Shown here: piece by piece, positions 2,763 through 28,529 of the stretch
Numbering within the stretch: position 1 is the first letter of the stretch
Layout: each line of letters begins with the position of its first letter
Source of the DNA: a virus
Lineage: Duplodnaviria > Caudoviricetes
IMG/VR virus record: IMGVR_UViG_3300037751_000192
Location: 1-28,529 of that record
DNA length: 28,529 nt
Reading direction: 5' to 3' (one strand)
Program-made: the position numbers and the translations under genes
Notes under the pieces: model-generated
The model's database searches: none
What the model was told of the DNA's origin: nothing
The model's input: only the letters and a program-made list of their open reading frames with translations

Positions 2763-2777
2763 TGATTACACCTCTAT

Positions 2778-4265
2778 TTATATTTCTTCTTCCAGTTCTG
2801 GACTTACCAGGATTGGAGCCGCATCACTGATAACAAATTCAAGCTGTCTGTTGTAATATGCCCCGTTCCTTCTCCACGTCGCCCTAAAGGTAGTGTCGTC
2901 AACCTGGGTTATGGATGCATTCCGCGCGGTTGTCCAGGTGCTTGACCCATTGTTCCGGTATCTAAGCGACACCGTGATATCATCGGTGGAAACTGTTGAA
3001 AACCGTTTCAGGGTCATCGTGTATTTTGAGCTAAACTTCCGCTTGGAAAATGCCCCATGGGATACCACTGGGGGCCTTATAACCATTCTGATGTCGGATG
3101 AATCTTCACCAGCTATCAGTGGATTGTCGTCAGAGTCAAGGATAAGATCGCCGTTTGAATCTTCAACGTGTCCCTGTCCCGGAGTATAATAATTTGGGTC
3201 AATTTTGTGCAGAAGCCCGCTATTTTTATCACCGACAAGACGGATATTCCAAGCATCAGCAAAGGCAATTCCTACTGCATTCAGCCTTTTATAGTCAGTC
3301 CCGTCCCATTCACCCCACGGGTGCCACCTGTTGCCGATAATGTCATAAAGAATGGTCTTATCTTGCGTTGGGAAATCCATCTTTACAAAGTGCCGCCCGG
3401 CTATGACATACGGCTCAAGGATTGCATCTGATATTGTCGCGAACCCCTGAAGGTACAAAGAAAGAGATTGTGACTGCTGGGAAGGCAAAGGCTCGATCAT
3501 TGCCCCATTCAGTCTTACTAGGTCGCGATTTTGGTTTATCCAGTAAAACTGGCCAAGGACAAAGGTAAAGGCGTTTTTCCCAATAATCCCGCCATCAGAC
3601 CAATGACCGTTGTACTCAGGCACAAACGGGGTTAATCCGTCATCAACCCATATCTCAAGGGAATGTGAACCCCAGAGCCATAGGCGGTCATTTCCTACGG
3701 CCAATGCTTTTAGATCATCGGGAATTCGGTTCGGTGAAGCGAAATTGTTAGTCCATGAAGTGGGGGCATCGGCGTCGGACCATTCAAAGGTCGCGGGAAG
3801 TGAAGTATCTAGCGCAATCAGCTTTCCATTCAAAACCGCAACGTGGCTAACGGTTGTCGGTGCGTCCCCGTCCGCCAAATATGAAGCGTTTCCGCTTGAC
3901 GGGATAGCAATTATCTTTCCACCATTCGCGGCATAAAGAGATGTACCGAAATCCGCAAAATATGCCCTTGTGGCATCCTCCGGAGTTCCTGTTCCGGTTA
4001 TTTCGGCATTTGTTCCAGCGGCGGCAGTAATCTTGTAAATCTTCTGGGCTGAGATGTAAATTGCCATGCTTTGCTTGTACCACCAGTACAGCCCGTCACA
4101 TGGCGCGTTGGTGCTGATATCCACGATGGTGCTCATGCCCGGGCGTTTGCGGATGTTGTTTAGTTCATCCACATAGACATCTTGCAACACCGCGCCCAAT
4201 GTTCCGAGGTCAACCTCGTCAACGTTTCGGTATGAGCCTAGATATAGTGGGATTTTTTCAAGCAT
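2778..4265 (-). CDS. P22 gp10-like tail stabilisation/nozzle protein
   Basis: 495 aa, beta-propeller-like composition with motifs KRPG, PD...LWLWG..S.EIW and T..YD....WH. Follows the gp4-like gene. Confidence 0.75.
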   Translation of the reverse strand: MLEKIPLYLGSYRNVDEVDLGTLGAVLQDVYVDELNNIRKRPGMSTIVDISTNAPCDGLYWWYKQSMAIYISAQKIYKITAAAGTNAEITGTGTPEDATRAYFADFGTSLYAANGGKIIAIPSSGNASYLADGDAPTTVSHVAVLNGKLIALDTSLPATFEWSDADAPTSWTNNFASPNRIPDDLKALAVGNDRLWLWGSHSLEIWVDDGLTPFVPEYNGHWSDGGIIGKNAFTFVLGQFYWINQNRDLVRLNGAMIEPLPSQQSQSLSLYLQGFATISDAILEPYVIAGRHFVKMDFPTQDKTILYDIIGNRWHPWGEWDGTDYKRLNAVGIAFADAWNIRLVGDKNSGLLHKIDPNYYTPGQGHVEDSNGDLILDSDDNPLIAGEDSSDIRMVIRPPVVSHGAFSKRKFSSKYTMTLKRFSTVSTDDITVSLRYRNNGSSTWTTARNASITQVDDTTFRATWRRNGAYYNRQLEFVISDAAPILVSPELEEEI

Positions 4266-5551: not shown

Positions 5552-5961
5552 CTTTCAACGATAAGCTGAAGGGTTAACTTCAGAGAAACGCCCATGTTGT
5601 CACCTACCAGCCATGCCCCTGTTCTCGGAAGCATGATTTCCTTGTACGCTCCCCCGAAAAGCGGGGTAATCGGATTATCTGCCGAGATGGACATATTTAC
5701 TCCTGCGCTACCAAGCAAGTCAGCCTTTATAGTCGTGTTGTCGTTATACAGGTAGACATCAAACAGCGTGGTAGGCGTGTCGTCCTCGTCGGCCATGACG
5801 TATGCCTCTTTCAGCTTACCCTCAATATATGGGAGTTGCTGAAGAACATCGCCGGAGGCATCAGAAACAACGGTGAACTCGTAAAGCCTGGTTGAAGTAA
5901 CCCGGCTTCTTGATAAAACTTTTTTATTGTTAAATGTGGCTGTAACAGTTCCAGTTGCCAT
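5548..5961 (-). CDS. Hypothetical phage protein (structural operon)
   Basis: 137-aa ORF with a G-rich RBS, coupled to neighbours. Confidence 0.6.
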   Translation of the reverse strand: MATGTVTATFNNKKVLSRSRVTSTRLYEFTVVSDASGDVLQQLPYIEGKLKEAYVMADEDDTPTTLFDVYLYNDNTTIKADLLGSAGVNMSISADNPITPLFGGAYKEIMLPRTGAWLVGDNMGVSLKLTLQLIVER

Positions 5962-7006
5962 TTCCCCCCCTTATGGGTGTGTTAAATAATCCAAGCCACG
6001 TAATAGCCATCATGGCAGTTGTCCCGATATGAAACGGAAAATTAACAAGTGAGTTAACCAAAATTATAACCCCGGCAATTAATGCTATGCTTTCGGCTTT
6101 CCAAAAATATGAACACACAAACCCAAGAATTAACATTGGCGTCTTTATACCCATCTCAAACCATGATTGAAAAACGTCGTTATGCAAATATCCCCACTGG
6201 GTGTCTAATAATGGAAAAACTGTCTTGAAATTCCCCAACCCGCACCCAAACCTTGGATGTTGTCTGGTTATATTCCACCCTTCGGCCCATGCTTGTAACC
6301 TCGCAGAAGAGCCGGGCTGGTCTATATATTTTAGATAAATCAACCCACAGAACCCAACCAAAAGCAACCAAACCGTTTTTTGATTTCCCCTGATTAGTGC
6401 CCACACAATAACACCACTTGAAACCGCCAAAACTCCACCAAAGGTCTTGGCCATTATAAGCCCTAAAGCGGTTATCAGACTACCCATGATAATTAACGGC
6501 TTTGTTCTTAAAAAGGCTGGGAAACAAAAAGCCACGACCGCAGATGCCAAATTCTGGTTGCCCATATTACCTATCGGTGATCCGTTTTCCCCGCCATGAA
6601 GAATAAGTGTCCACCAACTGGTTATTTCTGGCTTTATATACGTCTGGATTGCCAAAAGACCAACAACGCAAGCCGAAACGACACACAAACAGTCCATTAT
6701 TATGTTTTTATCCGGCTTGGTTTTCGCCAAAAGCATATAATAAAGAACCCCGTACAATATCCATTGATAAGACAAGAACGCTTCCATCGTATATGCCGGA
6801 TAATGAAGAGATATCAGCGCGCTTACGTTGAATAACGATACCCATTTGTTTATTTTCCATAAATAGAAAGACAAACAGATAGATACCGCCGAACAAAACA
6901 GAACAATAAACAAAACCCTGTAATTGTTAGTCGGCACTCTGACCAGGCTTGCCAGAAGGAGGGCGGCCCCAAAGACCGCCCCCCATTTTTTACTGGATTG
7001 ACTCAT
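5930..7006 (-). CDS. O-antigen ligase/Wzy_C-family polytopic membrane protein
   Basis: Many hydrophobic segments plus the motifs GNQN, R...W......HP.FG.GLGNF and HND..Q...E.G. Start placed at ATG 7006 (ORF track start 7024). Confidence 0.75.
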   Translation of the reverse strand: MSQSSKKWGAVFGAALLLASLVRVPTNNYRVLFIVLFCSAVSICLSFYLWKINKWVSLFNVSALISLHYPAYTMEAFLSYQWILYGVLYYMLLAKTKPDKNIIMDCLCVVSACVVGLLAIQTYIKPEITSWWTLILHGGENGSPIGNMGNQNLASAVVAFCFPAFLRTKPLIIMGSLITALGLIMAKTFGGVLAVSSGVIVWALIRGNQKTVWLLLVGFCGLIYLKYIDQPGSSARLQAWAEGWNITRQHPRFGCGLGNFKTVFPLLDTQWGYLHNDVFQSWFEMGIKTPMLILGFVCSYFWKAESIALIAGVIILVNSLVNFPFHIGTTAMMAITWLGLFNTPIRGGNGNWNCYSHI

Positions 7007-7712
7007 AACAAAATTTCGCCCCAATCATCTCAAGATCACCAGTGCCGTCCGCGACATCATCTCGCCACAAGCCGAATGTTATCCAATCGCTTGATGTTAA
7101 TGCCGCAAAGTCCGTTGTCACAGACATGGTAATTTCATCCGGCGTGGACGTAGTCCCTGCCAAGGCAACGGGAGTTTGGTCGGTTGCCGCAGAATCAGAG
7201 GCTGTGCCATCAGAATTTAGATAAACCGAAAAGTCAACCTCGTTAGGCGTGGTAGAGTCGCTCTCCTTGAACAATCCATAAAAAGTTCCACCACTTGAAT
7301 AATCATCCGGTATCGGAAAGGTAATATCTGCCGGAGTTGTTTCACCATCTGCCCACACAATCCCCGGAACAAGATCATCTACCTCGATGCCTGGGGCCGT
7401 GGCGTTAGTTACCGGGACACCGTTTGTGATAAAAGATGCCAGTGGCAGGTTGACACATCTCGTGGTATCAGCAATCTCCCCGGCAGAAACATCCCCGGTT
7501 GGAAGAGTAACAGCACCGTCAAACCTGGCAGCGCCGTCAACCTCCAAGGTCCCGCTGATAAACATATCGTCTACGCCTGGGGTTACATCCGCAGTATCGG
7601 TTCTGTCGCCTACCCACAGACTGTCAAGATGGGTGATAGTTCCAGGCTTGGCCGCAAAAGCATTCCCGGACAATGCCGCAACAAGTACCAGACAAAGAAG
7701 GATCTTTTTCAT
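6990..7712 (-). CDS. Acidic protein with Sec-type signal peptide, structural operon
   Basis: MKKILLCLVLVAALSGNAFA-A (basic, hydrophobic, AxA). GGAGG RBS. Confidence 0.7.
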   Translation of the reverse strand: MKKILLCLVLVAALSGNAFAAKPGTITHLDSLWVGDRTDTADVTPGVDDMFISGTLEVDGAARFDGAVTLPTGDVSAGEIADTTRCVNLPLASFITNGVPVTNATAPGIEVDDLVPGIVWADGETTPADITFPIPDDYSSGGTFYGLFKESDSTTPNEVDFSVYLNSDGTASDSAATDQTPVALAGTTSTPDEITMSVTTDFAALTSSDWITFGLWRDDVADGTGDLEMIGAKFCYESIQ

Positions 7713-10020: not shown

Positions 10021-10797
10021 CTATTCTCCTTGCGCCCAATACTCTTTAGCGTATGTTTCTTTTTTCAGTTCCCGGCCTTGCACCTTGAATTTTGAGGCCA
10101 ACCGATCATATGCACCTTTGGCATCGGCCGGCAAGTCGTTGAAAGTTTTCTCCGTCGTCTTTTTCCCGCCTGCTCTTGATCCCCCCTCCACATCTCCAGG
10201 CTTGTCCCGGTTCGGGTTGGTAAACTTGTGCGGAAACTGTTTTTTCGTCCTGGCCGTCATTTCCTCAGCCAATTTTGCCGGAGTAATCCCAGGGGTTTCG
10301 TGGACGATCTTGTGGCTAATAAAGTCGGCATAGTCGGCAAGGTCCTGGTCCTCTTGATACCATGGATTTTTTTCTTTCCATTCGGTGAAATGAGGCGGTT
10401 CCTGATTGACAGGTTTCGGCTCAGCCGGAGGCTTAATCGACTGCCGCTCTTTCTTGACCTCTTTGTATGCTTCGGTGTCGCCAACCTCGACCGCTTCAGC
10501 CTCTTTTCTGTCCAGTGCGGCCAGCTTGGATTCGTACTCCTGTTTGGCTCGATCGTATGACTCTTTCCGGACCTGCTCAAGCTCAGCCTTGGTCAGCTTA
10601 ACCGCCATATCCAGGTCTTTTTCCAGCTTGCTGACCTTGTCCCGCATTATTGGAATGATATTTTCCCCTCGCAAAACAAACTCTTTCGCAGGCCGCCACT
10701 TATCCGGGTCGCCTTTCCAATCTTCCTGGGGTACATGGCCCATCTTGGCCGCTTCTTCCTCGTAATTTCTTTCTTCGCTCATGTCATCATCCCTCAA
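10021..10797 (-). CDS. Putative scaffolding protein
   Basis: Highly charged and coiled-coil-like, with E.EA..MG..P...W.G....W..A.EF and W...NPWY. Lies between portal and capsid. Alternative start at 10782. Confidence 0.65.
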   Translation of the reverse strand: MRDDDMSEERNYEEEAAKMGHVPQEDWKGDPDKWRPAKEFVLRGENIIPIMRDKVSKLEKDLDMAVKLTKAELEQVRKESYDRAKQEYESKLAALDRKEAEAVEVGDTEAYKEVKKERQSIKPPAEPKPVNQEPPHFTEWKEKNPWYQEDQDLADYADFISHKIVHETPGITPAKLAEEMTARTKKQFPHKFTNPNRDKPGDVEGGSRAGGKKTTEKTFNDLPADAKGAYDRLASKFKVQGRELKKETYAKEYWAQGE

Positions 10798-11095
10798 TTA
10801 CTGCGCCGATCTCTTTGTCCGAAATCAGCCTGTAATCTTCGCCGTCCTGTCCTTTAACCGTTGCCCCTGCGTATTTGTCGAAAAGGATTTTGTCGCCAAC
10901 CTTGGGGTAATCCAGCCAGTTAGGGTCAGTAAAACAGATTGACCCAATGGCGATTATATCCCCGCGCTCCTTGGCGTACTTTTCCTTTTCCTTGGCGGAG
11001 TCGGGGATATAAAGCCCACCAGCCGTCTGTGCTTCAACTGCTTCTGGCTTCACCAGTACCTTGTACTCAACCGGTCTTATTCCTGACTTGTTCAT
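10787..11095 (-). CDS. groES: Co-chaperonin GroES (phage-encoded)
   Basis: IRP....VLVK....E..TAGGLYIPDSAKEK...G.IIAIG...KVGDKILF.KYAG..V...G.DY.LI...EI.AVIE matches Cpn10 throughout. Confidence 0.92.
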   Translation of the reverse strand: MNKSGIRPVEYKVLVKPEAVEAQTAGGLYIPDSAKEKEKYAKERGDIIAIGSICFTDPNWLDYPKVGDKILFDKYAGATVKGQDGEDYRLISDKEIGAVIEG

Positions 11096-13370: not shown

Positions 13371-13622
13371 TTAAGCCTGGTCATATTTGCTCTGCATCTC
13401 GCTGTCTGTCAGCATCTCGTATCCTTCGGGGGCTTTGATCAGCCAGTCCCCATGACCGAGTTTTACCACTCGCCCGGCGCCGTATATGATGATTTTTTTG
13501 TTTGTTGCCTGGATGTCTATCCGCTCTGCCGTGTCCGCAAAACTCACTATCTCCGCCGTGTTGCTCCCTGTCCATTGCACGGCGTCAAAGGTTGCAAGAT
13601 GTTTTTGTTTGATTTTCATCAA
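13371..13622 (-). CDS. Hypothetical phage protein
   Basis: AVQWTG.N..EI..F...GDWLIK motif seen in small phage proteins. 4-bp overlap with the terminase C-terminal ORF. Confidence 0.6.
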   Translation of the reverse strand: MMKIKQKHLATFDAVQWTGSNTAEIVSFADTAERIDIQATNKKIIIYGAGRVVKLGHGDWLIKAPEGYEMLTDSEMQSKYDQA

Positions 13623-14371
13623 TACCCTGTATCCTCGTTGCGCTCGACTTTGCCGTAACCGTTGCCGCCCGCATCCATTGCGATGTCGCGCGATGTCGCC
13701 AATGGCATCCCAGAAACAATCAGGTACCGCATGCAGTCCATCAGATGATCATTGTCTTTGACAACCTTGCCGTTTTCGTCCCTGCGATAGAGTCTCAGCT
13801 CCTCCAACACAGCAGCGAGACTGCGGAAAATCTTAAGCCGCCCCGACACCATCCGCCTGTAAACGGCGTGTATGCCTGACTCAACTGCGTTATCAGCCAA
13901 ATCCAGAGACAACCCCATATTGACGTACTCGTCGTACAATTTAACGCCGTCTTTTTGGCTACGCCCACTTGCTGCCGGATCAATTACGCCAGGTATCCAT
14001 GCCCCCCTGCTCTTAATTGCATCAACATGAGTCGCAGGCTCTGCCATCCCCTGCTTATAGCAGGAGTACAGATACACCGTATCACTCTGCCTATCCCATG
14101 CACCCCAAAGTGCAGCTGTGTTGTTCCAGCCCACATCCATTCCAAAAGCGCACGGCCAAAACTCCGGCACCTCAACGTCATCGCAGACAATCCGCTCCTC
14201 TGCTATCGGGTAGATGGCCCCGGCTCCGAGTTGCGGAATCCCTTTGGCCCGTGCGTCCCGCTGATACGGAGGAATAGAGTCCCAAAGCTCCTGTTTTTGC
14301 GCTGTGGTCAGGTGGGGGCAGTCATCCCACGTAGCGGTTGTGACATATTTTGTTGCGCTCACAACTGGCAA
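13619..14371 (-). CDS. Terminase large subunit, C-terminal (nuclease) part
   Basis: TWDD.PHL, R.AR.KGIP..G.G.IYP, GMDVGW, IDPA and DHLMD..RY acidic RNase H-like motifs. AAGGAG lies upstream of the TTG start. Confidence 0.85.
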   Translation of the reverse strand: MPVVSATKYVTTATWDDCPHLTTAQKQELWDSIPPYQRDARAKGIPQLGAGAIYPIAEERIVCDDVEVPEFWPCAFGMDVGWNNTAALWGAWDRQSDTVYLYSCYKQGMAEPATHVDAIKSRGAWIPGVIDPAASGRSQKDGVKLYDEYVNMGLSLDLADNAVESGIHAVYRRMVSGRLKIFRSLAAVLEELRLYRRDENGKVVKDNDHLMDCMRYLIVSGMPLATSRDIAMDAGGNGYGKVERNEDTGY

Positions 14372-14440
14372 AACCGCTCCTTTCCGCCTAACATACAGCC
14401 CCGGAAATTTTGGACACTTTTGTTGAAATCATTAGATAAA

Positions 14441-15175
14441 TTATACTTCATTTTGCCTAACGCTTTGGGGTATTTTCCCATTGCTCAAAAATGTTTTAAC
14501 GACCTCAGATATCCCCAACAGCGGGGTGAACGTCAAAATCATCAGCCCGTCCGTGGTCATCGTCCTCATTAGACACTCGCTCCATATTGACAGGTCCGGC
14601 TCCTCGTCCAACCATATGACATGCTTCGCCGTGCCCTGAAAGGATTTGCGTTTCTGGTCATACGATTTCAGCCCCAGGCTTGACTTGCCGCCCGACACAT
14701 GCTTGATTGTCGCGCTCTGAATGGCATCCGGGACCCCGTTCCGCCGTGTTGTATCTATGATTGAGTCTGCTGGAATCAACCCCGTGCCCATCTCGCCAAT
14801 CTGCCCGAACAACTCTAACTGTATGATATCCCTGACTGTCTCGCTCGTATCTCCTGCCGCCCACACGCTGACCGGCCCCGTAAACCTGCGCCCCTGCCAC
14901 CACTGCGGATACCGGCCTGTGAGATGGCAGACAACCTCATACCCGCCGGCAATAGTTTTCCCGACACGGTTCGCGGCCATGAACAGCCGCTCCCGGTAGT
15001 GCGCCCCGGCGGCGAAATGTTCAGTATGTTTCCCGTACAGCTCCCGCCGCAGCGGCCCGTCATCCGGAAACAAGCTGTCAATCTTCCGCCCTCGCTCCCG
15101 CCGCCGCAACTCACTGAGGATCTCTACTGCGCGCTGCATCTGCGAGTAGCTGAGAGAGCTGAGATCGTAACTCAT
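14441..15175 (-). CDS. Terminase large subunit, N-terminal (ATPase) part
   Basis: Walker A AANRVGKT, Walker B IWLDEEP and coupling motif TFTP. Start placed at ATG 15175. Confidence 0.88.
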   Translation of the reverse strand: MSYDLSSLSYSQMQRAVEILSELRRRERGRKIDSLFPDDGPLRRELYGKHTEHFAAGAHYRERLFMAANRVGKTIAGGYEVVCHLTGRYPQWWQGRRFTGPVSVWAAGDTSETVRDIIQLELFGQIGEMGTGLIPADSIIDTTRRNGVPDAIQSATIKHVSGGKSSLGLKSYDQKRKSFQGTAKHVIWLDEEPDLSIWSECLMRTMTTDGLMILTFTPLLGISEVVKTFLSNGKIPQSVRQNEV

Positions 15176-15758
15176 GCTCGTCGCGTTTTGTGATGTCATC
15201 TATCTCCACATGTTGCCGATCCCCGTAGTCGCCGGGGTCTGTTACCTTTGCTAACCACCTATAATGATTAGCCAACTCGCGCGCCTTGGTGATTTCCGCC
15301 GGCGTAGCATCCGGCAGTAGTGCGTTGATAGCGTCTAAGGCCGCCCGTGCATACTCCTGAGCCAACAGCCGCCGGGTTTCGCGCGCGCGATGAATCCGAG
15401 CTGGATCTGCAACGAGCCACGCATGCAGCGTATCACTCCCGACCCCGCATTTTTTGGCGGTCTGCTTGTGTGTCGCCCCGTCGCTGATAATCCGGCATAT
15501 CTCATCTATCCCGATATTGTCGAGGGTCTCGCCCGGTGTGCGCGTAGTACTCGTTGTATCGTTCCGGGTAGTCGCGCCTGATTTTATCAACGAGTTGGCT
15601 GTATCTGTGATAGTAGCTGAGGATTTGCCCTGGGTAGCAATCGACTTGTTGCGCGAGGGCTTGGAGTTTGTCTTTGTCGTGAACGGCTTGGACGAGCAGC
15701 GGGACGGGGATTTGACGGAGCCTTTGCTCTCTGGTTTTTTTTTGGGTTGCCCGGCCAT
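15111..15758 (-). CDS. Terminase small subunit (Sf6 gp1-like)
   Basis: IC..I..G......A...GV...TL..WL HTH, RARE and RW.A....P..YGD. Start placed at ATG 15758. Confidence 0.75.
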   Translation of the reverse strand: MAGQPKKKPESKGSVKSPSRCSSKPFTTKTNSKPSRNKSIATQGKSSATITDTANSLIKSGATTRNDTTSTTRTPGETLDNIGIDEICRIISDGATHKQTAKKCGVGSDTLHAWLVADPARIHRARETRRLLAQEYARAALDAINALLPDATPAEITKARELANHYRWLAKVTDPGDYGDRQHVEIDDITKRDEHELRSQLSQLLADAARSRDPQ

Positions 15759-17660: not shown

Positions 17661-18632
17661 TTATGCAAACAATACCCGTTGAATATTTTCTTTTTTCTTT
17701 ACCTGCTCCATGTTTTTTTCTGCCTGCCTGTAATAGCTGGTTTTAAGCTCTATACCAACACCCCTCCTCCCGTTCTGCACCGCAACAAAAACCTCCGAAC
17801 CCACCCCCATGAACGGGGACAAAACAACCTCTCCAGGATTTGACCTCAGTACGATAGCCCGTTCAATAATGTCGAGTTGCAACGGGTGGACATGCTTCTC
17901 GTCATCAGGCTCTTTACAGTCCTGATAAGGTAAAACCCTATTCATCCTGATGTCATCCCAGACAGAAGAGGCATATCGTCTCCATATCCAATGAGAATAT
18001 CTATTTTCCGTTTGTTTCCCCTTCCAACCTCGATACCGCAAAATATCAGCAGGCATCGGAGACTCCCCCGCATACTCTTCAAGGCCATAAGTGTGAGTAA
18101 CTGGTATTTTATTTTCTCCTTTTTTCCTAAAAACCAACAAATAGTCCGCGGTGGCAACCCCGCCATAAACTCCGTCATCCACAATGGTCTTATGGGATAG
18201 GTTTTTGGTCATCGTCCGGTTTCTCACCCATAACGGTTCTTTCCATATCGCGTGCCTGGCTATCATGCGAAAACCGTGCTTTTCGTGCAGCCTGATTATG
18301 TCGCCGGGGAAATCTATCAGGTAATCATCTTTTCCAGAGTTTGATGAAGGAATATCCGTGCAATGCACTGCGGATATTCGTCCAGGCATCGTCAATCTTT
18401 CTATTTCTTTCACGCAAAATTCATAATGACAGAGAAACGTCTCGTAGTCGTTGCAGTTTGATAAATCTCGCTCGTTGCTCGAATATTTATACAACCCACC
18501 GGTGCTCGTCCCGAACGGCGGGCTGTATATGCTCATGTGAACTGATTTTTCCGGCAGCGACCGCATAACCTCAATGGAATCAGAATTATAAATAGCAAAC
18601 TCATCGGTAATTTTTTGTGATATTACAGCCAT
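17661..18632 (-). CDS. DNA methyltransferase (N4-C/N6-A, beta class)
   Basis: Catalytic SPPF near the N-terminus, H..P motif and SAM-binding PF.G.GS at the C-terminus. Confidence 0.9.
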   Translation of the reverse strand: MAVISQKITDEFAIYNSDSIEVMRSLPEKSVHMSIYSPPFGTSTGGLYKYSSNERDLSNCNDYETFLCHYEFCVKEIERLTMPGRISAVHCTDIPSSNSGKDDYLIDFPGDIIRLHEKHGFRMIARHAIWKEPLWVRNRTMTKNLSHKTIVDDGVYGGVATADYLLVFRKKGENKIPVTHTYGLEEYAGESPMPADILRYRGWKGKQTENRYSHWIWRRYASSVWDDIRMNRVLPYQDCKEPDDEKHVHPLQLDIIERAIVLRSNPGEVVLSPFMGVGSEVFVAVQNGRRGVGIELKTSYYRQAEKNMEQVKKKENIQRVLFA

Positions 18633-20032
18633 GCCGGGACCTCCCCCTTGTTGATTATTTTGTTTTCTCTCTCTATCCCAACTGCGTTATTCATGTGTGA
18701 AACAAGCGACTCAAACATCTTGTCAGCGGCAACCATTTTTCTTTGAAGGTTGGCCATCACTTTCCTTTGTCCTTCCGTCATCACCAGATCAACGCGGACT
18801 GGTTTTTTCTGCCCAAACCTCCAACACCTCCGAACCCATTGGTAATACTGCTCATACGAATGAGACGGAAAATAGGCGATATGATTGCAGTGTTGAAAAT
18901 TAAGACCCCATGCTCCTATTTTGGGCTTTGTGATAAGGACACGGACCGACCCATCAACAAAGGCCATTATCTTTTCTTCCTTCGCCTCGTCAGAATCGCT
19001 ACCACTTATCTGGACAGCTCCTGGTATTATTTTTGATAGTGTGTCCCCTTCCAGGTTTAAATGACACCCAACAAACCCAGGATCTTCAGTATTCATCAAC
19101 TCTGCAACCTTGTAACATCGATCCTCTATTGTGCGCCTACTTTCTTCTCTTTGTTCCGGTAAGTTTCTAGCTGGTACAGAAAACAACATCCCCGGTGGTA
19201 GCGTTTCGGATTTTACGACATGTTCTGTTTCTGTTAGCCTTGGTAAAATAAAATTTTGATCATCAAAACCAACATCAGAGGGCTTTCTTATCGCCCTCGC
19301 CCACGAACAAACCCACTGCCAAAAAGGTTTTTCGGCGTGACCGCGAAAGCGCCACTTAGGAGCCTCTCCATACATCCGACGCATTGCGCTGTTGTTGCTG
19401 TCATTTTTAAAAAACCTGTTAAGCATATCCATAAAACCCAAATACCCGAGAGCTTCTGAGCTGGTACCCAACTCGAGATAATCATTCGGCGCGGCGGTTG
19501 CCGTACATAACAGCCGGTAGGGAACTTTCCGCATAAAATCAGTAATAGCCGCCCGCCTCGCTGCGTCTGCGTTTTTCAAACAGGATGATTCGTCACAAAC
19601 GACACCCGAAAAGCATTTCCAGTCAAAATGATGCAGCTTTTCATAGTTTGTCACTTGTATTTTATCAGACCTTCCACCCTCGTTCACCCTGGCGGCACAT
19701 ATACCAAACTTAGTCGCCTCTCTTATCGTCTGAGCCGATACAGCAAGTGGGGTGAGAACCAAAACCGGTTTATTTGTGTGCTCCACTACATTCTGCGCCC
19801 ATACCAAATACTGGATAGTTTTTCCTAAACCACAATCCTCAAACAATGCGGCCCGACCCTTAAAAAGAGACCAAAGAGTCATTTCTTTTTGAAAGTCTTT
19901 CATAATATCTGGCATAAAGGTTGGGCTAAATCCATGATTAGATCCCAGGTTTGTTTTTCCCTCCAAAAACCTCTTATACTCGTCCACCACTCCCCCTTTA
20001 TCACTGGTCCGCTTATTTTGCCGATATATCAC
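18623..20032 (-). CDS. SF2 (SNF2-like) helicase
   Basis: CGLGKT, DESS, TATAAPN, GLNFQ and Q..RRCWRFGQ. The true start is probably a GTG near 19987-19990. Confidence 0.88.
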   Translation of the reverse strand: MIYRQNKRTSDKGGVVDEYKRFLEGKTNLGSNHGFSPTFMPDIMKDFQKEMTLWSLFKGRAALFEDCGLGKTIQYLVWAQNVVEHTNKPVLVLTPLAVSAQTIREATKFGICAARVNEGGRSDKIQVTNYEKLHHFDWKCFSGVVCDESSCLKNADAARRAAITDFMRKVPYRLLCTATAAPNDYLELGTSSEALGYLGFMDMLNRFFKNDSNNSAMRRMYGEAPKWRFRGHAEKPFWQWVCSWARAIRKPSDVGFDDQNFILPRLTETEHVVKSETLPPGMLFSVPARNLPEQREESRRTIEDRCYKVAELMNTEDPGFVGCHLNLEGDTLSKIIPGAVQISGSDSDEAKEEKIMAFVDGSVRVLITKPKIGAWGLNFQHCNHIAYFPSHSYEQYYQWVRRCWRFGQKKPVRVDLVMTEGQRKVMANLQRKMVAADKMFESLVSHMNNAVGIERENKIINKGEVPAWL

Positions 20033-22499: not shown

Positions 22500-23317
22500 C
22501 CTTTCCCCGTAATAAACGAGTTCTCTTCCTCCCCCTGTGTTTCTTGAAGAAAACTATCCACATGCTTGCAATCCCGGCATATCAACTCAATGTCGTTGTA
22601 TTTGGTTTTTCTGTCGTTTTTCCCCATGTGGTGTTCCGATTTCCGGCATCCGTCAATAGCTTCTTTGAGTTGATCAACCGTGTAGTCTTTTAGCCTTGCC
22701 CGGATTTTTGATATTCTTTCTGGGCTTGCCTTTGCCTTTTCTGTGCCCATTACTTTTTGCCAGTGCCGGAAAACTTCCATCACCGAATCGTCGGGCGTGC
22801 TCGACAAGTCTTTTTTCTTTTCTTCTTTTGGAGAAGGAGAAGGAGCAGGAGCAGGAGCAGGGCTTATACGATTCGTTAACGATCGTTTAACGTCCGTTAA
22901 TAAATCGTACTCTTTTTTGGTGATTGACGTTCGTCCCTCGTTAATAAGCCTACCGTATAACTCCTTGTTAATTTTGGCTAACCGCGAGAACCTTGCCTTG
23001 TCTCCTCGGTTGTCAGCCCCAGCCGCCCAAGGATTATGTTCCGCCCATCCATGAAGGCGAAAACCATCTTCATTTTCTTCCAGCCAGCCCAAATCAACGA
23101 CCAGTTTCACAAAAAAACCGTTCTCTCCTGTCCACCTAGCAGCGATTTCAATATCTTCAGAATCCAACCCTATAAAATGCCCACACGGTTTATTTTGAGC
23201 CGCCCACAGCCATAGTATTTGAAGGCTTTTCACGGCATTAAGACCACCACGGCGTTCAAGTTTTACCGTTTTAGGATGATCCCAAAAATCAACGGCTATT
23301 CGGATGTCGGTATTCAT
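22487..23317 (-). CDS. Putative replication initiator
   Basis: N-terminal F..HPK...L / LW.WA domain, PAPAPAPSPSP linker and C-terminal VF..W...R..KI.ARL...AI.G domain. Directly upstream of the primase-helicase. Confidence 0.65.
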   Translation of the reverse strand: MNTDIRIAVDFWDHPKTVKLERRGGLNAVKSLQILWLWAAQNKPCGHFIGLDSEDIEIAARWTGENGFFVKLVVDLGWLEENEDGFRLHGWAEHNPWAAGADNRGDKARFSRLAKINKELYGRLINEGRTSITKKEYDLLTDVKRSLTNRISPAPAPAPSPSPKEEKKKDLSSTPDDSVMEVFRHWQKVMGTEKAKASPERISKIRARLKDYTVDQLKEAIDGCRKSEHHMGKNDRKTKYNDIELICRDCKHVDSFLQETQGEEENSFITGKGWAN

Positions 23318-23543
23318 TGAGCCCGGCCATTTATATAATCGTGCAAGCCATCATAAACAGCAAAAGCCCAGCCATAAGCACGCTTGAGGAGTGACACCCC
23401 GAAAGGGTAGGGCGGCAATCTGGTTTCTAAAACCATCGCAGTTATGGCCAGGCTTTTGATTTTTAGTGGGTACAAAATAAAAGGCTCCCTTTCTTTTGTG
23501 CTGTTGGGCTTCTCATTCCCAAAAGCATTAGGTGATTTTTTTT

Positions 23544-23572
23544 ATCCTATGTCGACACCCTCTAAATGTCAA
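23544..23572 (-). promoter_or_regulatory. Sigma70-type promoter for the replication operon
   Basis: Minus strand TTGACA-N17-TAGGAT. Confidence 0.6.
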
Positions 23573-23695
23573 CCGATTTTCGGTGTCAATGGGGGAAAAA
23601 CCACCGGTTAATTATTATAAAATATAACCATTGGTGGGTAGACAAAAAAAAATAAAACTCTACTCCCAGCCTAATATGGCAATCATCAACAGATT

Positions 23696-23932
23696 TTACT
23701 TTTTCATCGTCAACGACTGCAAATATTCCACTTGTTTTCGGACAACACTGTCTTTATAAAGTGCATATTGTACTATGGCTGGATACTTGAGCCACGAATG
23801 GGCATCCTGGCACACTTTATTAACATAAGCAAATGCGGGCGAGGTGTTGGTGCAATTTGGCCAATCAAGACATTGCTCTGCCGCCAGCCGATAACACGCA
23901 GCCGGTGGTTTTTTTGTTGGTAAATAGCCCAC
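23696..23932 (-). CDS. Hypothetical protein
   Basis: 78-aa ORF with no recognisable motif and a weak start. Confidence 0.3.
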   Translation of the reverse strand: MGYLPTKKPPAACYRLAAEQCLDWPNCTNTSPAFAYVNKVCQDAHSWLKYPAIVQYALYKDSVVRKQVEYLQSLTMKK

Positions 23933-24067
23933 TTTGGGGGTTGTAGCTATACAAAGACTTCAGCTTTTTCTGAGTTAATAATTGCCGCATTGCTATTCCT
24001 TTGTTTTAATCATTACCGAATATAGTCAGTCAAAAAAAGGCAAAAAAAATATTTAGGAAATTTTTCC

Positions 24068-24086
24068 CGATAATCATATGTTACCC
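24068..24086 (+). mobile_element. attI-like integron recombination site (array start)
   Basis: CGATAAT-CATAT-GTTACCC: an L-like box, 5-bp spacer and GTT core, after an A-tract region with no attC hairpin. The core is the reverse complement of the first attC start. Confidence 0.65.
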
Positions 24087-24440
24087 TGCCAGGGGAATCT
24101 TGTAATAGGCTCGGCAGGCTTCTTCAATCAGTGCCGCCCGGCTTTCTGGGCGGTTATCCATCCAGGTCAAAAGATCGGGCGGCAACAAAACAGACACGGC
24201 AACCTTTTTCTTTTCTTCCGGCAACTCCGGGCGGCCAGCGCCAGGGCGACGGCCGCCGCGCTGGGGTATGTTTTTTATGGCCCCGGCATTACCAACCACA
24301 CGGATTCCGCTGGCCAATTCGATCAAGCATCCCTTAAACAGGCCATCATCTCCGACGTATTCGCCAAGCGATTTGGCCCCTTCGGGGAGCGGTGACGCCC
24401 CCCAGTAAATGTTTTTGGCTTTTTCAGGGGTCATAATCAC
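24081..24440 (-). CDS. Cassette 1 gene B: C-terminal ribbon-helix-helix/antitoxin-like DNA-binding domain
   Basis: RGGRRPGAGRP...KVAVSVLLPPDLL.W......SRAALIEEA. Its TAA stop lies inside the GTTACCC core. Confidence 0.65.
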   Translation of the reverse strand: MIMTPEKAKNIYWGASPLPEGAKSLGEYVGDDGLFKGCLIELASGIRVVGNAGAIKNIPQRGGRRPGAGRPELPEEKKKVAVSVLLPPDLLTWMDNRPESRAALIEEACRAYYKIPLAG

Positions 24441-24640
24441 GCCCCCCTGTACATTGGGTTGCGGTGCTCTACCACCGTAGCCCCAGCAGCCTTAGCCTTA
24501 ACGAGGCCAGCTTCAAATTGTTCGGTCGGGTAAACACCAGCCTTACCGACAATCGACACCGTACCGGCGGTGTATTCGATAAAATTTTGAACTTGCCCGG
24601 TTGCCAAGGTCACTGTGATTTCGCGCTTCCAAGTTTCCAT
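24437..24640 (-). CDS. Cassette 1 gene A: hypothetical protein
   Basis: 67 aa, GAGGAG RBS, 4-bp overlap with gene B. Confidence 0.65.
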   Translation of the reverse strand: METWKREITVTLATGQVQNFIEYTAGTVSIVGKAGVYPTEQFEAGLVKAKAAGATVVEHRNPMYRGA

Positions 24641-24684
24641 TTTCTTTCTCCTCGGTTGTGGGCTTCTGCCCTTTTGTTGATTTA

Positions 24685-24713
24685 ATCATATCACTATATC
24701 AACCGAGTTACAA
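24685..24713 (-). promoter_or_regulatory. Internal promoter of cassette 1
   Basis: Minus strand TTGTAA-N17-TATGAT with an extended -10 TG. Confidence 0.6.
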
Positions 24714-24767
24714 TAGAAAAAATGATATTGGTTAATCTTTTTTTGTTCTGCAAAACCTGGCCGGCCA

Positions 24768-24856
24768 GGGTAACAAAACGGCCCAGCGGACCGGGGCAAG
24801 CGCCGCGTTGTTTCTGCCAGGTCACAGGTCCGGTCCGCTGGCCTCAATCGTTAGCC
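24768..24856 (+). mobile_element. attC site 1 (89 bp)
   Basis: GGGTAAC-AAAAC-GGC(C)CAGCGGACCGG...CCGGTCCGCTGGCC-TCAATC-GTTAGCC, with the extra C in the left arm. Confidence 0.92.
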
Positions 24857-25057
24857 TTCCCTCAATCCAAATTCGGTTGCACAATCAAAACAGTATGGTT
24901 TCCCATCCTCATCTTTGTACCCGTCCTCCTCGCAATACCCAGTCGCTTCTCCGCATTTACAGCAAATTTCTCTCGTTCCTGGATAATTATACGAGTTCCA
25001 CGCCTCATGTTCGCTTTGATCCAGCGCGTGACAATATCTACCTGGCCATGTATTCAT
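24851..25057 (-). CDS. Cassette 2 gene: small Cys-rich protein (68 aa)
   Basis: GGAGG RBS 7 nt before ATG 25057. CCKC...C and CFDC motifs. TAA stop inside the GTTAGCC core. Confidence 0.7.
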   Translation of the reverse strand: MNTWPGRYCHALDQSEHEAWNSYNYPGTREICCKCGEATGYCEEDGYKDEDGKPYCFDCATEFGLREG

Positions 25058-25074
25058 GTTCAAACCTCCAATTC

Positions 25075-25165
25075 GGCTAACAAGTCGTCAGAGCGGACGC
25101 CGAGAAGCGCCCCGGCGCTACCGCATTTTAGGTCATCGGCGGTGCCGCTCAACTCTGCGTTGTGC
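25075..25165 (+). mobile_element. attC site 2 (91 bp)
   Basis: GGCTAAC-AAGTC-GTCAGAGCGG(A)CGCCG...CGGTGCCGCTCAAC-TCTGC-GTTGTGC. Confidence 0.9.
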
Positions 25166-25169
25166 AGGC

Positions 25170-25897
25170 TCATACTCCACATTGGCACGGTGGGTATTCA
25201 ATTTCCTCCATGCCAGGCAGGGCAGTCTGCCGCTCGTTAATAATCTGACTCAACCTTTTACCGTTATTCAGCAACGTAAGGTCTTGGTTCCGTATCGTTT
25301 CCGCTCGGTGATGGTAATGTCCTCCAAGGTCTGCGCCGCGCAAAACAGCTCAGGATGCCGCCGCCGGAGTTGACGCCATTGCCCCTGGCGCTGAAACATG
25401 CAGAGGAAACAGCCGCTTTTCATCGGCAGCGGCAATCCGTGTGAGGCAATCACTCTCTTGCACTCCTCCCGGTCGATTCCTTCCTCTATCAGGGGGTATC
25501 TGTTTTCAATGCCTTTCTTGCTGTTCAGCCTTGCACGGTGGGACTCGCCAGCATCGATCCCAAGCAGCATAAAGCACGGCTTTTCAACGTGCTTAAAAAC
25601 TGGCCGGAGCTTAAATTTATCGGTGCAGTCCCGCTTCATCATGCTGGGCACCTTCTTTTTTGCGACGTAGTAATCATAGAGCTTCGCGTACCCCTCAACG
25701 TCCGGCGTCAAAACAGTCACGGGGTTGTGGCCATTATCCTTCAGCCAGGCTTGAAACATTTCAAAATACTCGTAGGTTTCAGGCCAATCCGCGCCATGAT
25801 CCACGAATATGCTTTCGAACTCTAGGCCCCAATCCAAGCACAGGAGATGCAGGGCCACTGAGTTCACGCCGCCGCCAAAAGAAAGATAGTTTTTCAT
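25170..25897 (-). CDS. Cassette 3 gene: PAPS-reductase-like (PP-loop, Fe-S) protein, probably frameshifted near the 3' end
   Basis: SFGGGVNS, CT.KFK, YPLI and KSGCFLC motifs. Start at ATG 25897. The frame stops at 25268, but the -1 frame continues to a stop at 25170. Confidence 0.75.
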
Positions 25898-25913
25898 GAC
25901 TCCACCCCCGCCT

Positions 25914-26002
25914 GCACAACCAAGCGCTTCACTGGAAGCCGGGAAGCGCTGGCATGTTTTCTGGTCGTTCATTGGCGGCTCCAGTGAGCTCAAGCGTTGG
26001 GC
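25914..26002 (+). mobile_element. attC site 3 (89 bp)
   Basis: GCACAAC-CAAGC-GCT(T)CACTGG(A)AGCCG...CGGCTCCAGTGAGC-TCAAGC-GTTGGGC, with two extra bases in the left arm. Confidence 0.93.
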
Positions 26003-26029
26003 GGCGTAGTCTGCAACCGCCCGGTAGCG

Positions 26030-26776
26030 TCAAATATATTTCACAATTGAAAACTTCCCAGTTTCTGAGGTGTATTTTACATCTAGGGATTGGGCTGATA
26101 AATTAATCTTGGTAATCCCAAACAAGCCGCACCTCCGCCTGTAATATTCGGCGGTGGGATTGGTAAAACATATACCGTTCAAGGCTTCAGGCTCAAACGG
26201 CCGCAACTCATCAAGGATTTTGTCCACCGTTACGGTCTGTAATTTTGACCCGGCAAAAGGGGCAAATTCGAGGAACCTAGGAATTGTATTTCGGTGCAGT
26301 ATGGCCTCTTTGTATATACTCTTCACCTCGTGAAGATTACGACTTGTGACAACGACGTTTATCTTTACCAGATCCACATTTTGCGCCATCCATGCGACCT
26401 TATTCCATATCTCCTCTGGAGTAATAAGGGTCTGCCCGGTGAGCACCTGAAATAACTCAGTATCCATGCTATCCAGCGACACATTTATCCTATTTAGCCC
26501 GGCATCGACCAAATCACCATAAAACCGAATGCTGGCCGTGCCATTGGTGGCCATCGACTGATGCATACCCATGAGGGAGGCAAACCTGATGTCTTTTACT
26601 AAATCAGTGCCTCGTAGTGTCGGCTCTCCGCCGGTCCAGTGGAGATGGTCCACCCCATTTTCGTGCAAGGCGGTTATATACTCTCGCAAATTTCCGCTTC
26701 GTTTCACGCCGAAATTAGAGATATCGCAGTACCCGCAAGCGAAATTACAACTCGTTGTTTTTATGCATGTTTTCAT
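26030..26776 (-). CDS. Cassette 4 gene: MoaA-like radical SAM protein
   Basis: CNFACGYC, TGGEPTLR, TNG, RINVSLDS, VKINVVV and RF.EF motifs. No C-terminal auxiliary-cluster cysteines. AGGAGG RBS. Confidence 0.8.
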   Translation of the reverse strand: MKTCIKTTSCNFACGYCDISNFGVKRSGNLREYITALHENGVDHLHWTGGEPTLRGTDLVKDIRFASLMGMHQSMATNGTASIRFYGDLVDAGLNRINVSLDSMDTELFQVLTGQTLITPEEIWNKVAWMAQNVDLVKINVVVTSRNLHEVKSIYKEAILHRNTIPRFLEFAPFAGSKLQTVTVDKILDELRPFEPEALNGICFTNPTAEYYRRRCGLFGITKINLSAQSLDVKYTSETGKFSIVKYI

Positions 26777-26808
26777 ATTGCCTCCTAATCCAAGTTCCGG
26801 GCAAAATC

Positions 26809-26899
26809 GCCCAACAAGCGCATCCCCGCCGTCTGCGTTGATGCGCGGTGGTTTTGGCGAGGCCTTGGTGCCGCCGCTGGTTATGCTGGGTCGTTATGC
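26809..26899 (+). mobile_element. attC site 4 (91 bp, degenerate left arm)
   Basis: GCCCAAC-AAGC-GCATCCCC...GCTGGTTATGC-TGGGTC-GTTATGC. Length and core chaining fit, but L-box pairing is poor. Confidence 0.75.
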
Positions 26900-27109
26900 G
26901 CTCAAAGCCATGTCAACTTTGTGCGCCCTGTTTCTATCTCTTTGCAGTTGAGATAACCCTTTCCCTTTCGCCAGGTAATTAATCAAATCGAGTTTATCGC
27001 TGAATTCATCGCACCGGAGATAAAACACGAACCACAGCCAATCCAGGAAAGATACCCTCCAAAACCTCAAAGCGGGTGTAAGTCTGTTAAAGTGTTCCAT
27101 GTTCATCAC
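26894..27109 (-). CDS. Hypothetical protein
   Basis: 71 aa, GAGGGAG RBS. TAA stop lies in the GTTATGC core of attC 4. Confidence 0.6.
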   Translation of the reverse strand: MMNMEHFNRLTPALRFWRVSFLDWLWFVFYLRCDEFSDKLDLINYLAKGKGLSQLQRDRNRAHKVDMALSA

Positions 27110-27303
27110 TTCTCCCTCTCGCTTTTAACAACAATGGTGAGGTAGTACCTCGCCTTCCTGGTTTGTATCCTGATCCCGTTCCGGCGAGCGAAATTGTGAG
27201 CGGCTATCTGTAGCCTATGCAGGGCAGGCTTCCCCCGGTATGGCATTTTAACCCCCTCGCCAGGACACATATCTAAAAGCATATGGAATTTGCTTTTTTT
27301 CAT
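27106..27303 (-). CDS. Small basic putative DNA-binding protein, probably leaderless
   Basis: ATG 27303 lies 7 nt from the -10 box and has no RBS. The ORF-track TTG start (27339) is the -35 box. Confidence 0.6.
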   Translation of the reverse strand: MKKSKFHMLLDMCPGEGVKMPYRGKPALHRLQIAAHNFARRNGIRIQTRKARYYLTIVVKSEREK

Positions 27304-27309
27304 ACTCGG

Positions 27310-27401
27310 ATCATAATCCATCTGGGGTGTAAATGTCAATCAGGGTTTTTATACATGTATAAAAATATTTTGTTGACATTCCCATTTGCCCGGATTACGA
27401 T
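27310..27401. promoter_or_regulatory. Divergent promoter pair with central palindrome
   Basis: Minus: TTGACA(27339-27334)-N18-TATGAT(27315-27310). Plus: TTGACA(27373-27378)-N17-TACGAT(27396-27401). Perfect 20-bp palindrome TTTTTATACATGTATAAAAA at 27346-27365. Confidence 0.75.
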
Positions 27402-27427
27402 AAGTGAAAATCAAAGGGAGGGAAACA

Positions 27428-27592
27428 ATGTGGAGAATAATAACCGAGATCATGATTCCGGCCTGCGTTATTTCCGTGATAATCGCGGGGCTATGGTGCG
27501 CCTTTCTGACGTGCGCCTCCGAGACTGCGCAAAAACAGGCCGCCGTATCTCGGAATTATGCTGCGATGTCTGTCGTCGAAAGTGTGAAATAA
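27428..27592 (+). CDS. Small membrane protein
   Basis: GGGAGG RBS before ATG 27428. One hydrophobic segment. Confidence 0.5.
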   Translation: MWRIITEIMIPACVISVIIAGLWCAFLTCASETAQKQAAVSRNYAAMSVVESVK

Positions 27593-27605
27593 AAAGGAGA
27601 GTGAA

Positions 27606-27923
27606 ATGAACATCAGACATGGGGATATGGCTCTAATCGGGGTAAAGGTATTACCGGACTGTCTTGTCGCATCGGGGGGCAAAACTCTCATGGTTGGTAT
27701 CGGGGGAAACAATCATGACGTTGATGACGGAGTATTCTACAAGTCGGAAAAAGATGGGTTTGTTTTTGGCTATCTTGTAGCGGGGGACAATTGTCAGCTG
27801 TTGCACCCAGATCACGGGGTGGGCAGTGGTTACAACAAATTAACTCCTGTCCCCTCTGGGGTTTACGAGCTGCGAAAACAATTTGAAATAACACACCAAT
27901 CTATGTTGCCAGTGGTGGACTAA
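27606..27923 (+). CDS. Hypothetical protein with RHGD...H...H.DH...GVYELR.Q.E motif
   Basis: AAGGAG RBS. His-rich motif pattern recalled from partners of DUF6745-type genes. Confidence 0.65.
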   Translation: MNIRHGDMALIGVKVLPDCLVASGGKTLMVGIGGNNHDVDDGVFYKSEKDGFVFGYLVAGDNCQLLHPDHGVGSGYNKLTPVPSGVYELRKQFEITHQSMLPVVD

Positions 27924-27937
27924 AAGGGGAATAAAAG

Positions 27938-28529
27938 ATGCCAACAAAAATAGAACGATTAGTAGATTCGCAAAAAGCCGCTATCCCGGCGTTTGTTAAA
28001 AAATGGATTGAGATAGGGCTAAAAACCGGGGAAACCGACTGGAACACATTTGATAAATATATGCCGATCTGCTACCAAAAGGCAGGGCTACAATACCCGA
28101 AAAAGGTAATAAGGGTGTTGTCTCCAATGGTTGGGGCTTTTGCCGCAGCGATAGCCGAAAGTCTATTGAAACAAAAACGCCCCGATGCCGTGCGCGATGC
28201 CGTGGCCGATGCCGTGGTCGGTGCCGTGCGAGTTGCCGTGCGCGGTGCCGTGGCCGGTGCCGTGCGCGGTGCCGTGGACGATGCCGTGCGCGGTGCCGTG
28301 GACGATGCCGTGGTCGGTGCCGTGGACGATGCCGTGGACGATGCCGTGACCGGTGCCGTGGCCGATGCCGTGGACGGTGCCGTGGCCGGTGCCGTGGCCG
28401 GTGCCGTGCGAGTTGCCGTGGTCGGTGCCGTGGCCGGTGCCGTGGACGATGCCGTGCGCGGTGCCGTGGACGATGCCGTGCGCGGTGCCGTGGCCGGTGC
28501 CGTGGCCGATGCCGTGGACGATGCCGTGC
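27938..28529 (+). CDS. DUF6745-like protein with tetrapeptide repeats (runs off the window edge; not in the ORF track)
   Basis: [31 protein letters not shown]...CYQKAGL..P..VI.V.SP, then (D/G/V)AVx repeats. Frame open to the window end. Confidence 0.7.
28184..28529 (+). repeat. 12-bp coding tandem repeat, about 29 copies, consensus G(A/G/T)T GCC GTG NNN
   Basis: Directly visible. TGCCGTG is invariant at a 12-bp period. Confidence 0.95.

Follow-up and report, generated by a model that had tools for sequence, protein, structure and literature searches.

The window, by which we mean the whole 28.5-kb stretch that was analysed (28,529 nucleotides), is an entire linear viral contig that is ~62% complete. 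Its minus strand carries phage genes for a terminase, a P22-like portal, a capsid, a primase-helicase, an SNF2 helicase and an MTase. An array of four cassettes lies between the replication genes on one side and divergent early promoters on the other, with the following features:

24068..24086, plus strand: attI-like simple site (CGATAAT, 5-bp spacer, G|TTACCC; no hairpin)
24081..24850, top strand plus: cassette 1, 770 bp, with its own promoter and two inverted genes; ends complementary over 9 bp
24081..24440, minus strand: 119-aa gene of cassette 1, with a conserved N-terminal domain and a variable C-terminal part; stop codon within the GTT core
24437..24640, minus strand: 67-aa gene of cassette 1; function not assigned
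24713-24685, minus strand: sigma70-like promoter of cassette 1, a consensus match only, overlapped by an operator-like 28-bp imperfect palindrome (24676-24703)
24768..24856, top strand plus: attC A, 89 bp, 37.1 bits; folds in its circular form
24851..25057, minus strand: cassette 2 gene, 68 aa, cysteine-rich, of no family; stop codon within the GTT core
25075..25165, top strand plus: attC B, 91 bp, 40.1 bits
25170..25897, minus strand: cassette 3 gene, PAPS reductase/SspD-like (phrog_424), with a frameshift near 25280 that is either real or an assembly error
25914..26002, top strand plus: attC C, 89 bp, 43.4 bits
26030..26776, minus strand: cassette 4 gene, radical SAM enzyme, 248 aa, below every equivalog cut-off; nearest clusters viral
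26809..26899, plus strand: site D, 91 bp, read as a broken attC in which the 15 bp of 26825-26839 have been inverted between inverted repeats of 7 bp
26894..27109, minus strand: 71-aa gene; its stop codon and the last GTT core overlap
27310..27401: divergent sigma70-like promoters, leftward at 27339-27310 (11/12 consensus) and rightward at 27373-27401, around a perfect 20-bp palindrome

The initial annotation had described four inverted repeats of 89, 91, 89 and 91 bp as attC sites, the GTT core at each boundary being the exact complement of the start of the next site. Its coordinates and 7-mer cores were all correct on re-checking, and the links proved perfect over 9, 7, 11 and 8 bp; given the core frequencies among 554 detected sites, four such links would arise by chance with a probability of ~1e-7. 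Sites A, B and C fit the attC definition in full (R''(AAC)-spacer-L''...L'-spacer-R'(GTT), 55-141 bp, L'' with an extra base), while the fourth repeat, as now read, does not; its L boxes are unpaired. A covariance model trained on 20 bacterial attC sites that terminate standard cassettes, with compensatory change in 8/14 pairs, matched A to C on the plus strand (E 1e-6 to 1e-7) and missed D; the best match on the minus strand reached 11.3 bits. The cassette chain itself is symmetric, and the orientation of the array is fixed by the attC extra bases. A strict attC detector returned 4 matches in the window, compared with 1 in 20 Markov shuffles; three were A to C, and the fourth, at 22768, lies inside a replication gene and was judged false. 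An earlier attC pattern, which was too narrow, gave 0 matches, and an Rfam scan of 23300-27700 produced no relevant match, only a chance match to a miRNA. In the integrated form, the bottom strands of A to C folded just modestly better than shuffled sequences (z of -2.6, -0.7 and -1.6, respectively; -0.1 for D). In the circular-cassette form, the minimum-energy folds of A to C paired the R boxes and the L stems, as the attC reading had predicted; that of D did not. The statement that no integrase lies beside the array can be extended to the entire contig (~62% complete), where no PF00589 or IntI match was found. With three model matches within 1.3 kb and no such integrase, the window holds a real CALIN-type array; it is neither a complete integron, which would have intI beside attI, nor a set of standard cassettes.

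The anatomy of site D could be explained with the help of a homologue present in two sediment metagenomes. An inversion of 26825-26839 predicts differences at 7 positions, and this homologue departs from site D at 7 of the 7, as well as at 3 further listed positions; we therefore read site D as a broken attC. The homologue continues leftward past the hairpin and ends at the right-hand GTTA. No partner core was found within 780 bp to the right of site D; the 71-aa gene is thus probably a resident of the original insertion point.

At the opposite end of the array, which is the 3' end of the genes, the core at 24080 is bare and stands behind TAAT and a 5-bp spacer. Of 27 bare viral array heads, 9 had the motif TAA[ACT]-N4-5-GTT, compared with 321/17,574 (1.8%) of all GTT trinucleotides, and so did 5/19 bacterial array heads; the 27 viral heads do not include that of the window, for which the walk began from the false site at 22768, and several of them look like missed attC sites. 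A near-identical head was found in a relative (G003), and a bare, attI-like end at the 3' end of the genes is shared by the window, G003 and a further locus (L278). By its sequence, 24068..24086 resembles an attI simple site, and an attI-like function is predicted for it. A 151-nt metagenome contig of depth 2 matched the left flank over 103 bases and departed exactly at GTTA, which is weak evidence but falls in the predicted place. We found no plus-strand match to a promoter left of the head, where a Pc promoter would be sought; the matches that would serve the genes were all on the minus strand. A dif/Xer reading of the head, made by eye against the consensus, was dropped.

In all four cassettes the genes run antisense to the top strand of attC, following phage transcription. 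They begin just beyond R'', and those of cassettes 1 and 2 stop inside the GTT core. This inversion, the attI-like left end and the break in site D had been overlooked when the cassette array was first described. Because the genes are inverted, they would be read by the phage leftward early promoter; judged from its consensus match, 27339-27310 would read the array. The cassette 3 protein matched phrog_424 (E 8e-39) and SspD (E 1e-28), and PAPS reductases are listed as candidate counter-defence genes in passages of PMC13551039. The 119-aa protein is RHH-like by eye and has one homologue named as an XRE regulator, but searches of Pfam, PHROG and folds gave no match. Its single-sequence structural model was poor (pLDDT 44), an alignment-based model reached a pLDDT of 70 with no fold match, and the Atlas matches were all <0.9. 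With a promoter that a palindrome overlaps, a small gene and a terminal gene for a putative regulator, cassette 1 is laid out like the acr-aca operons portrayed in passages of PMC13551039, a resemblance of layout only, as no Acr or Aca family or fold match was obtained. DNA-modification genes made up 7/19 PHROG matches of viral cassettes compared with 0/24 of bacterial ones, and the cargo of the array is predicted to comprise counter-defence and DNA-modification functions.

We then compared gene polarity across viral and bacterial arrays. An attC pattern applied to viral contigs yielded 35 loci and a second viral pattern 29 loci; the first pattern applied to GTDB genomes (9/64 parts) yielded at least 134 loci. 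Cassettes were counted as chained with ≤1 mismatch, genes were called by our own ORF score, and the viral set included the window and two loci of G003. Among the chained viral cassettes (81 of 100 intervals, 30 loci), 71 were inverted and 0 standard, 7 had no ORF and 3 were ambiguous; the 19 unchained viral intervals included 16 inverted and 1 standard. The chained bacterial cassettes (163 of 184 intervals, 38 loci) were standard in 106 cases and inverted in 10, with 36 lacking an ORF and 11 ambiguous. Thus, by one method, 71/71 orientable chained cassettes were inverted in viruses versus 10/116 in bacteria. The gene calls were supported by PHROG matches in 19/69 ORFs on the inverted strand versus 0/61 on the same strand as attC; ORFs from the second viral pattern had matches in 3/14. 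When loci were instead picked by their replication protein, with no use of attC, only 2 of 80 had an attC match, both opposite to the local genes, which indicates that arrays are a minority feature. Standard polarity does occur, in the phage TJE1 and in 3/8 cassette-borne PAPS genes, so that inversion of phage cassettes is a strong bias, not a law. Standard cassettes were also found within inverted arrays, with attC polarity unchanged (L044 and G003); the one in L044 matched the defence model LmuA. Hairpin inheritance was assessed in 3 viral homologue pairs, of which one favoured the upstream hairpin (0.89 vs 0.48) and two were uninformative; neither flanking hairpin was clearly conserved between homologous cassettes, and the same held for the PAPS copies.

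Relatives of the window phage were sought to compare cassette content. A blastn search of 50,697 GenBank phages gave no match to the window, and neither this search nor metagenome scans returned a close relative with both array flanks. The relative G003 (87% complete), whose capsid is 75% identical, carries two arrays with attC sites of 86-94 bp, similar to those of the window, and different cargo; G002 has two attC sites, and none were found in the analysed parts of three other genomes (G001, G004 and G005). The closest bacterial attC sites are just 69-75% identical to those of the window, and a host search via capsid clusters found no host. In a search of metagenome runs, 2 were listed, each with a small share (0.13 and 0.10), and no RNA run was among them; scans with the head site and with site D gave 0 matches each, and no circular-cassette or excision junction was seen in the metagenome runs, where coverage was very low.

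The PAPS reductase family allowed cassette-borne and plain forms of one gene to be compared. Before the tree was made, the copies in 25 loci and the window were labelled by context: 5 were inverted, 3 were standard and 14 were plain, with three fragments and one duplicate left out. A single clade was rejected for the inverted copies (p-AU 0.0011), for the standard copies (0.0004) and for all cassette copies together, and by this sequence tree the inverted-cassette, standard-cassette and plain forms are each polyphyletic. The ends of the inverted copies were perfect 11-bp complements in 4/4 cases, with four different sequences, compared with ≤3 bp in 13/13 noncassette copies. The same PAPS cassette core was found beside three different neighbors, one of which is a bare attI-like head; such changes of neighbor at the G|TT boundary are what a cassette array would be expected to show among relatives. 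A bold reading of these data is that PAPS genes may have been packaged into cassettes repeatedly. For the plain copies, the same tree would result if attC had repeatedly been lost or if sites had been missed, but this would explain the two polarities less easily.

How such arrays obtain a recombinase was examined in the viral records bearing attC. Tyrosine recombinases were present in 11/65 of them and in 3/10 near-complete ones, leaving 7/10 with none; 2 of the 13 matches were IntI above the TIGR02249 cut-off, and some records carried non-IntI enzymes. In G057, intI starts ~45 bp away from a core that is the perfect partner of the first attC, and in G026 it precedes a single attC; in both, it lies at the 5' end of the top strand, opposite to that strand and codirectional with the inverted genes. 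For most phage arrays, we favor an IntI supplied by the host, and a host IntI likely acted in trans on the window array. According to PMC5371416 and PMC11023631, the folded bottom strand is the preferred substrate of IntI, and recombination is more frequent for bottom strands that lie on the lagging template. A bioRxiv preprint (10.1101/2022.09.11.507474) reports that IntI in trans inserts cassettes at genomic GWT (attG) sites outside integrons.

We consider it likely that the locus is a chained array of four cassettes with attC sites, an attI-like head and all genes antisense, which was probably built by IntI, most plausibly that of the host. Sites A to C are presumably active in recombination. 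IntI would recombine their folded minus (bottom) strand, and circular cassettes would enter at the left head site or at the attC sites; cassette 1 would then be the newest, and the broken site D would mark the oldest. The inverted genes would be read from the leftward early promoter at 27339, and cassette 1 also by its own promoter, so that new cassettes would join the far end of an operon, the reverse of bacterial Pc logic. The data fit independent integrations into this phage as well as the uptake of a prebuilt block, and the two cannot be told apart. We regard as unlikely the stronger version of the latter, in which the array was built by IntI elsewhere and entered the phage once by homologous or illegitimate recombination, after which shuffling ended. 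It would account for a site D that is dead as read, a frameshifted cassette 3 and a contig lacking an integrase, and illegitimate capture has been suggested for phage CALINs in the accessible parts of Qi et al. 2023 (PMC9892861). It does not predict that A to C are intact with perfect links, that the attI-like head is intact or, a weak point, that the 151-nt contig leaves the flank at GTTA.

That the phage encodes an IntI of its own in the part of its genome that the contig lacks is quite improbable: the contig is ~62% complete and IntI does occur in 2/65 attC-bearing viral records, but in both of these intI abuts the head site, where the window has 760 bp of noncoding DNA in which no remnant of intI was found (best tblastn E 0.4), and G003, which is 87% complete with two arrays, has neither intI nor a remnant of it. 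Read on the coding strand, the array has an ordinary look, with stop codons in the core, and its cassettes might have the usual layout, each gene followed by its hairpin, with a different, Xer-like enzyme using the other strand; the symmetry of the chain and the non-IntI recombinases of some viral records are compatible with this layout. We nevertheless hold it to be very improbable, because two phages have a true IntI at the canonical position and one array combines standard with inverted cassettes under a single attC polarity, which favors an ordinary IntI. The bare attI-like end at the 3' end of the genes (in the window, G003 and L278) and the homologue of site D, which continues leftward past the hairpin but not beyond the right GTTA, also speak against such an enzyme. 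Finally, the weak folding z values of B, C and D and a terminator-like match within A could suggest chance hairpins or terminators, a negligible prospect that is refuted by the E values of the model and the improbability of the chain.

The inverted polarity calls for an explanation. The most likely, to which we assign about half of our confidence, is selection for expression: with this site polarity, the phage would read a cassette only if it is inverted, and standard cassettes from the host, which often carry defence genes, would lie antisense. Two further explanations are each less probable although conceivable: inversion may place bottom strands on the template of the lagging strand and thereby speed shuffling, or cassettes may form from phage genes with a bias. 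As an indicator of replication direction, GC skew was close to 0 in noncoding DNA, and the strand skew therefore comes from coding sequence. More broadly, and tentatively, we propose that phages run a mirror-polarity branch of the integron system and that new cassettes originate in them: ordinary phage genes would time and again be turned into cassettes with attC sites, for the most part inverted, and would be shuffled by the IntI of host or phage, while polarity separates them from the defence-rich host pool.

Integrons are viewed as bacterial stores of resistance and anti-phage genes, and to our knowledge the origin of cassettes is an open question. If our proposal is true, an opposite-polarity pool on the phage side would let phages use the same recombinase for counter-defence, and polarity would sort the phage and bacterial cassette pools, a rule that can be tested. 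The array likely enables the phage to exchange its own counter-defence genes by means of a borrowed integrase, and any host cassette that landed there would be read backwards. The array is also a source of candidate counter-defence genes, and the PAPS family, with plain, inverted and standard forms and covarying 11-bp ends, offers before-and-after pairs for studying how cassettes originate.

The window shares attC anatomy, the extra-base pattern, the R''/R' chain, an attI-like simple site and cassette size with bacterial integron arrays; it differs in that the contig lacks intI, the head lacks a Pc, the genes are inverted, expression is predicted from the far end and the cargo is phage-type. 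Passages of bioRxiv 2024.07.02.601686 describe anti-phage genes stored in chromosomal integrons. In SALINs (bioRxiv 10.1101/2022.09.11.507474), IntI acts in trans at GWT, and the first insertion in the window may similarly have occurred at a TAA-C stop context; the available passages of that work concern standard cassettes in bacterial chromosomes, and phage arrays with fixed inverted polarity are absent from them. Phage attC clusters have already been published: in the accessible parts of Qi et al. 2023 (PMC9892861), 17 CALINs were reported among 10,705 phages, five of six sites were recombined by IntI1, and the cargo included MTases. Those CALINs resemble the window array as attC clusters in phages without intI, whereas the window has genes antisense to attC, an attI-like head and a perfect chain. 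The inverted polarity is apparently the new part: we found no paper on inverted phage cassettes in searches that left subscription journals and bioRxiv supplements outside (PMC11551772, as far as its available text goes, proved irrelevant), and gene polarity is not mentioned in the main text and part of the supplement of PMC9892861, whose figures and Dryad annotation may show it. Among the examples of Qi et al., TJE1 is standard, and in MW202573 three model matches lie opposite to the annotated genes, an unremarked inverted case.

The viral record G057, a 98%-complete phage, carries IntI, an attI-like site and five attC sites (locus L253, 7403-13218), with its cassette genes inverted, that is, antisense to the attC top strand. 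This integron is complete, and G057 is the best model for experiments. A two-gene inverted cassette adjoins IntI in this phage, and a pair of resident window genes is ~41% identical to it.

Window 17661-20032: SNF2 helicase and N6/N4 MTase pair, resident
L253 9784-12059: the pair as an inverted cassette in G057
L059: locus also listed for the pair

The position of intI in G057 is occupied in the window by about 760 bp of AT-rich, non-coding DNA (23318-24067), where an origin or small RNA may reside. This stretch contains a promoter match and an inverted repeat; a palindrome lying between mirror-image promoters elsewhere beside the array is operator-like.

Window 23572-23544: promoter match, leftward
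Window 23354-23465: 24-bp inverted repeat
Window 27346-27365: perfect 20-bp palindrome

In the published phage MW202573 (L004), the covariance model of bacterial attC sites gave three matches at 2069-3738, on the strand opposite to the annotated genes, and by this arrangement the published CALIN (an attC cluster without intI) reads as an inverted array. The main text of Qi et al. 2023 (PMC9892861) carries no remark on inverted polarity in this array.

Standard, host-type cassettes, with the gene on the attC top strand, were found within inverted phage arrays at L044 (2276-2998), where the gene matches LmuA/protease defence models, and at L060 (4960-5840). In a Methylococcaceae MAG array (L088), two inverted small-gene cassettes (703-912 and 2825-2995) lie amid standard ones; a host may here be storing cassettes of the phage type. 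Some single phages (L255, L256, L258 and L259) have two arrays that run in opposite absolute directions, and these phages are useful for separating transcription from replication as the cause of polarity.

Three more cassettes or modules ending, as window cassette 1 does, in a small putative DNA-binding gene were found in the relative G003.

L062 2988-3763: cassette or module
L062 3926-5636: cassette or module
L060 5547-6283: cassette or module

Among the other window genes, the large terminase (13619-15199) reads as a Terminase_6N ORF and a Terminase_6C ORF separated by 70 bp, and the virion genes are interspersed with the following.

Window 317-1348: second radical SAM gene
Window 5930-7024: O-antigen ligase-like gene
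Window 10787-11095: GroES

The contig end falls inside 12-bp tandem repeats (28160-28529), which encode an Ala/Val/Asp-rich repeat.
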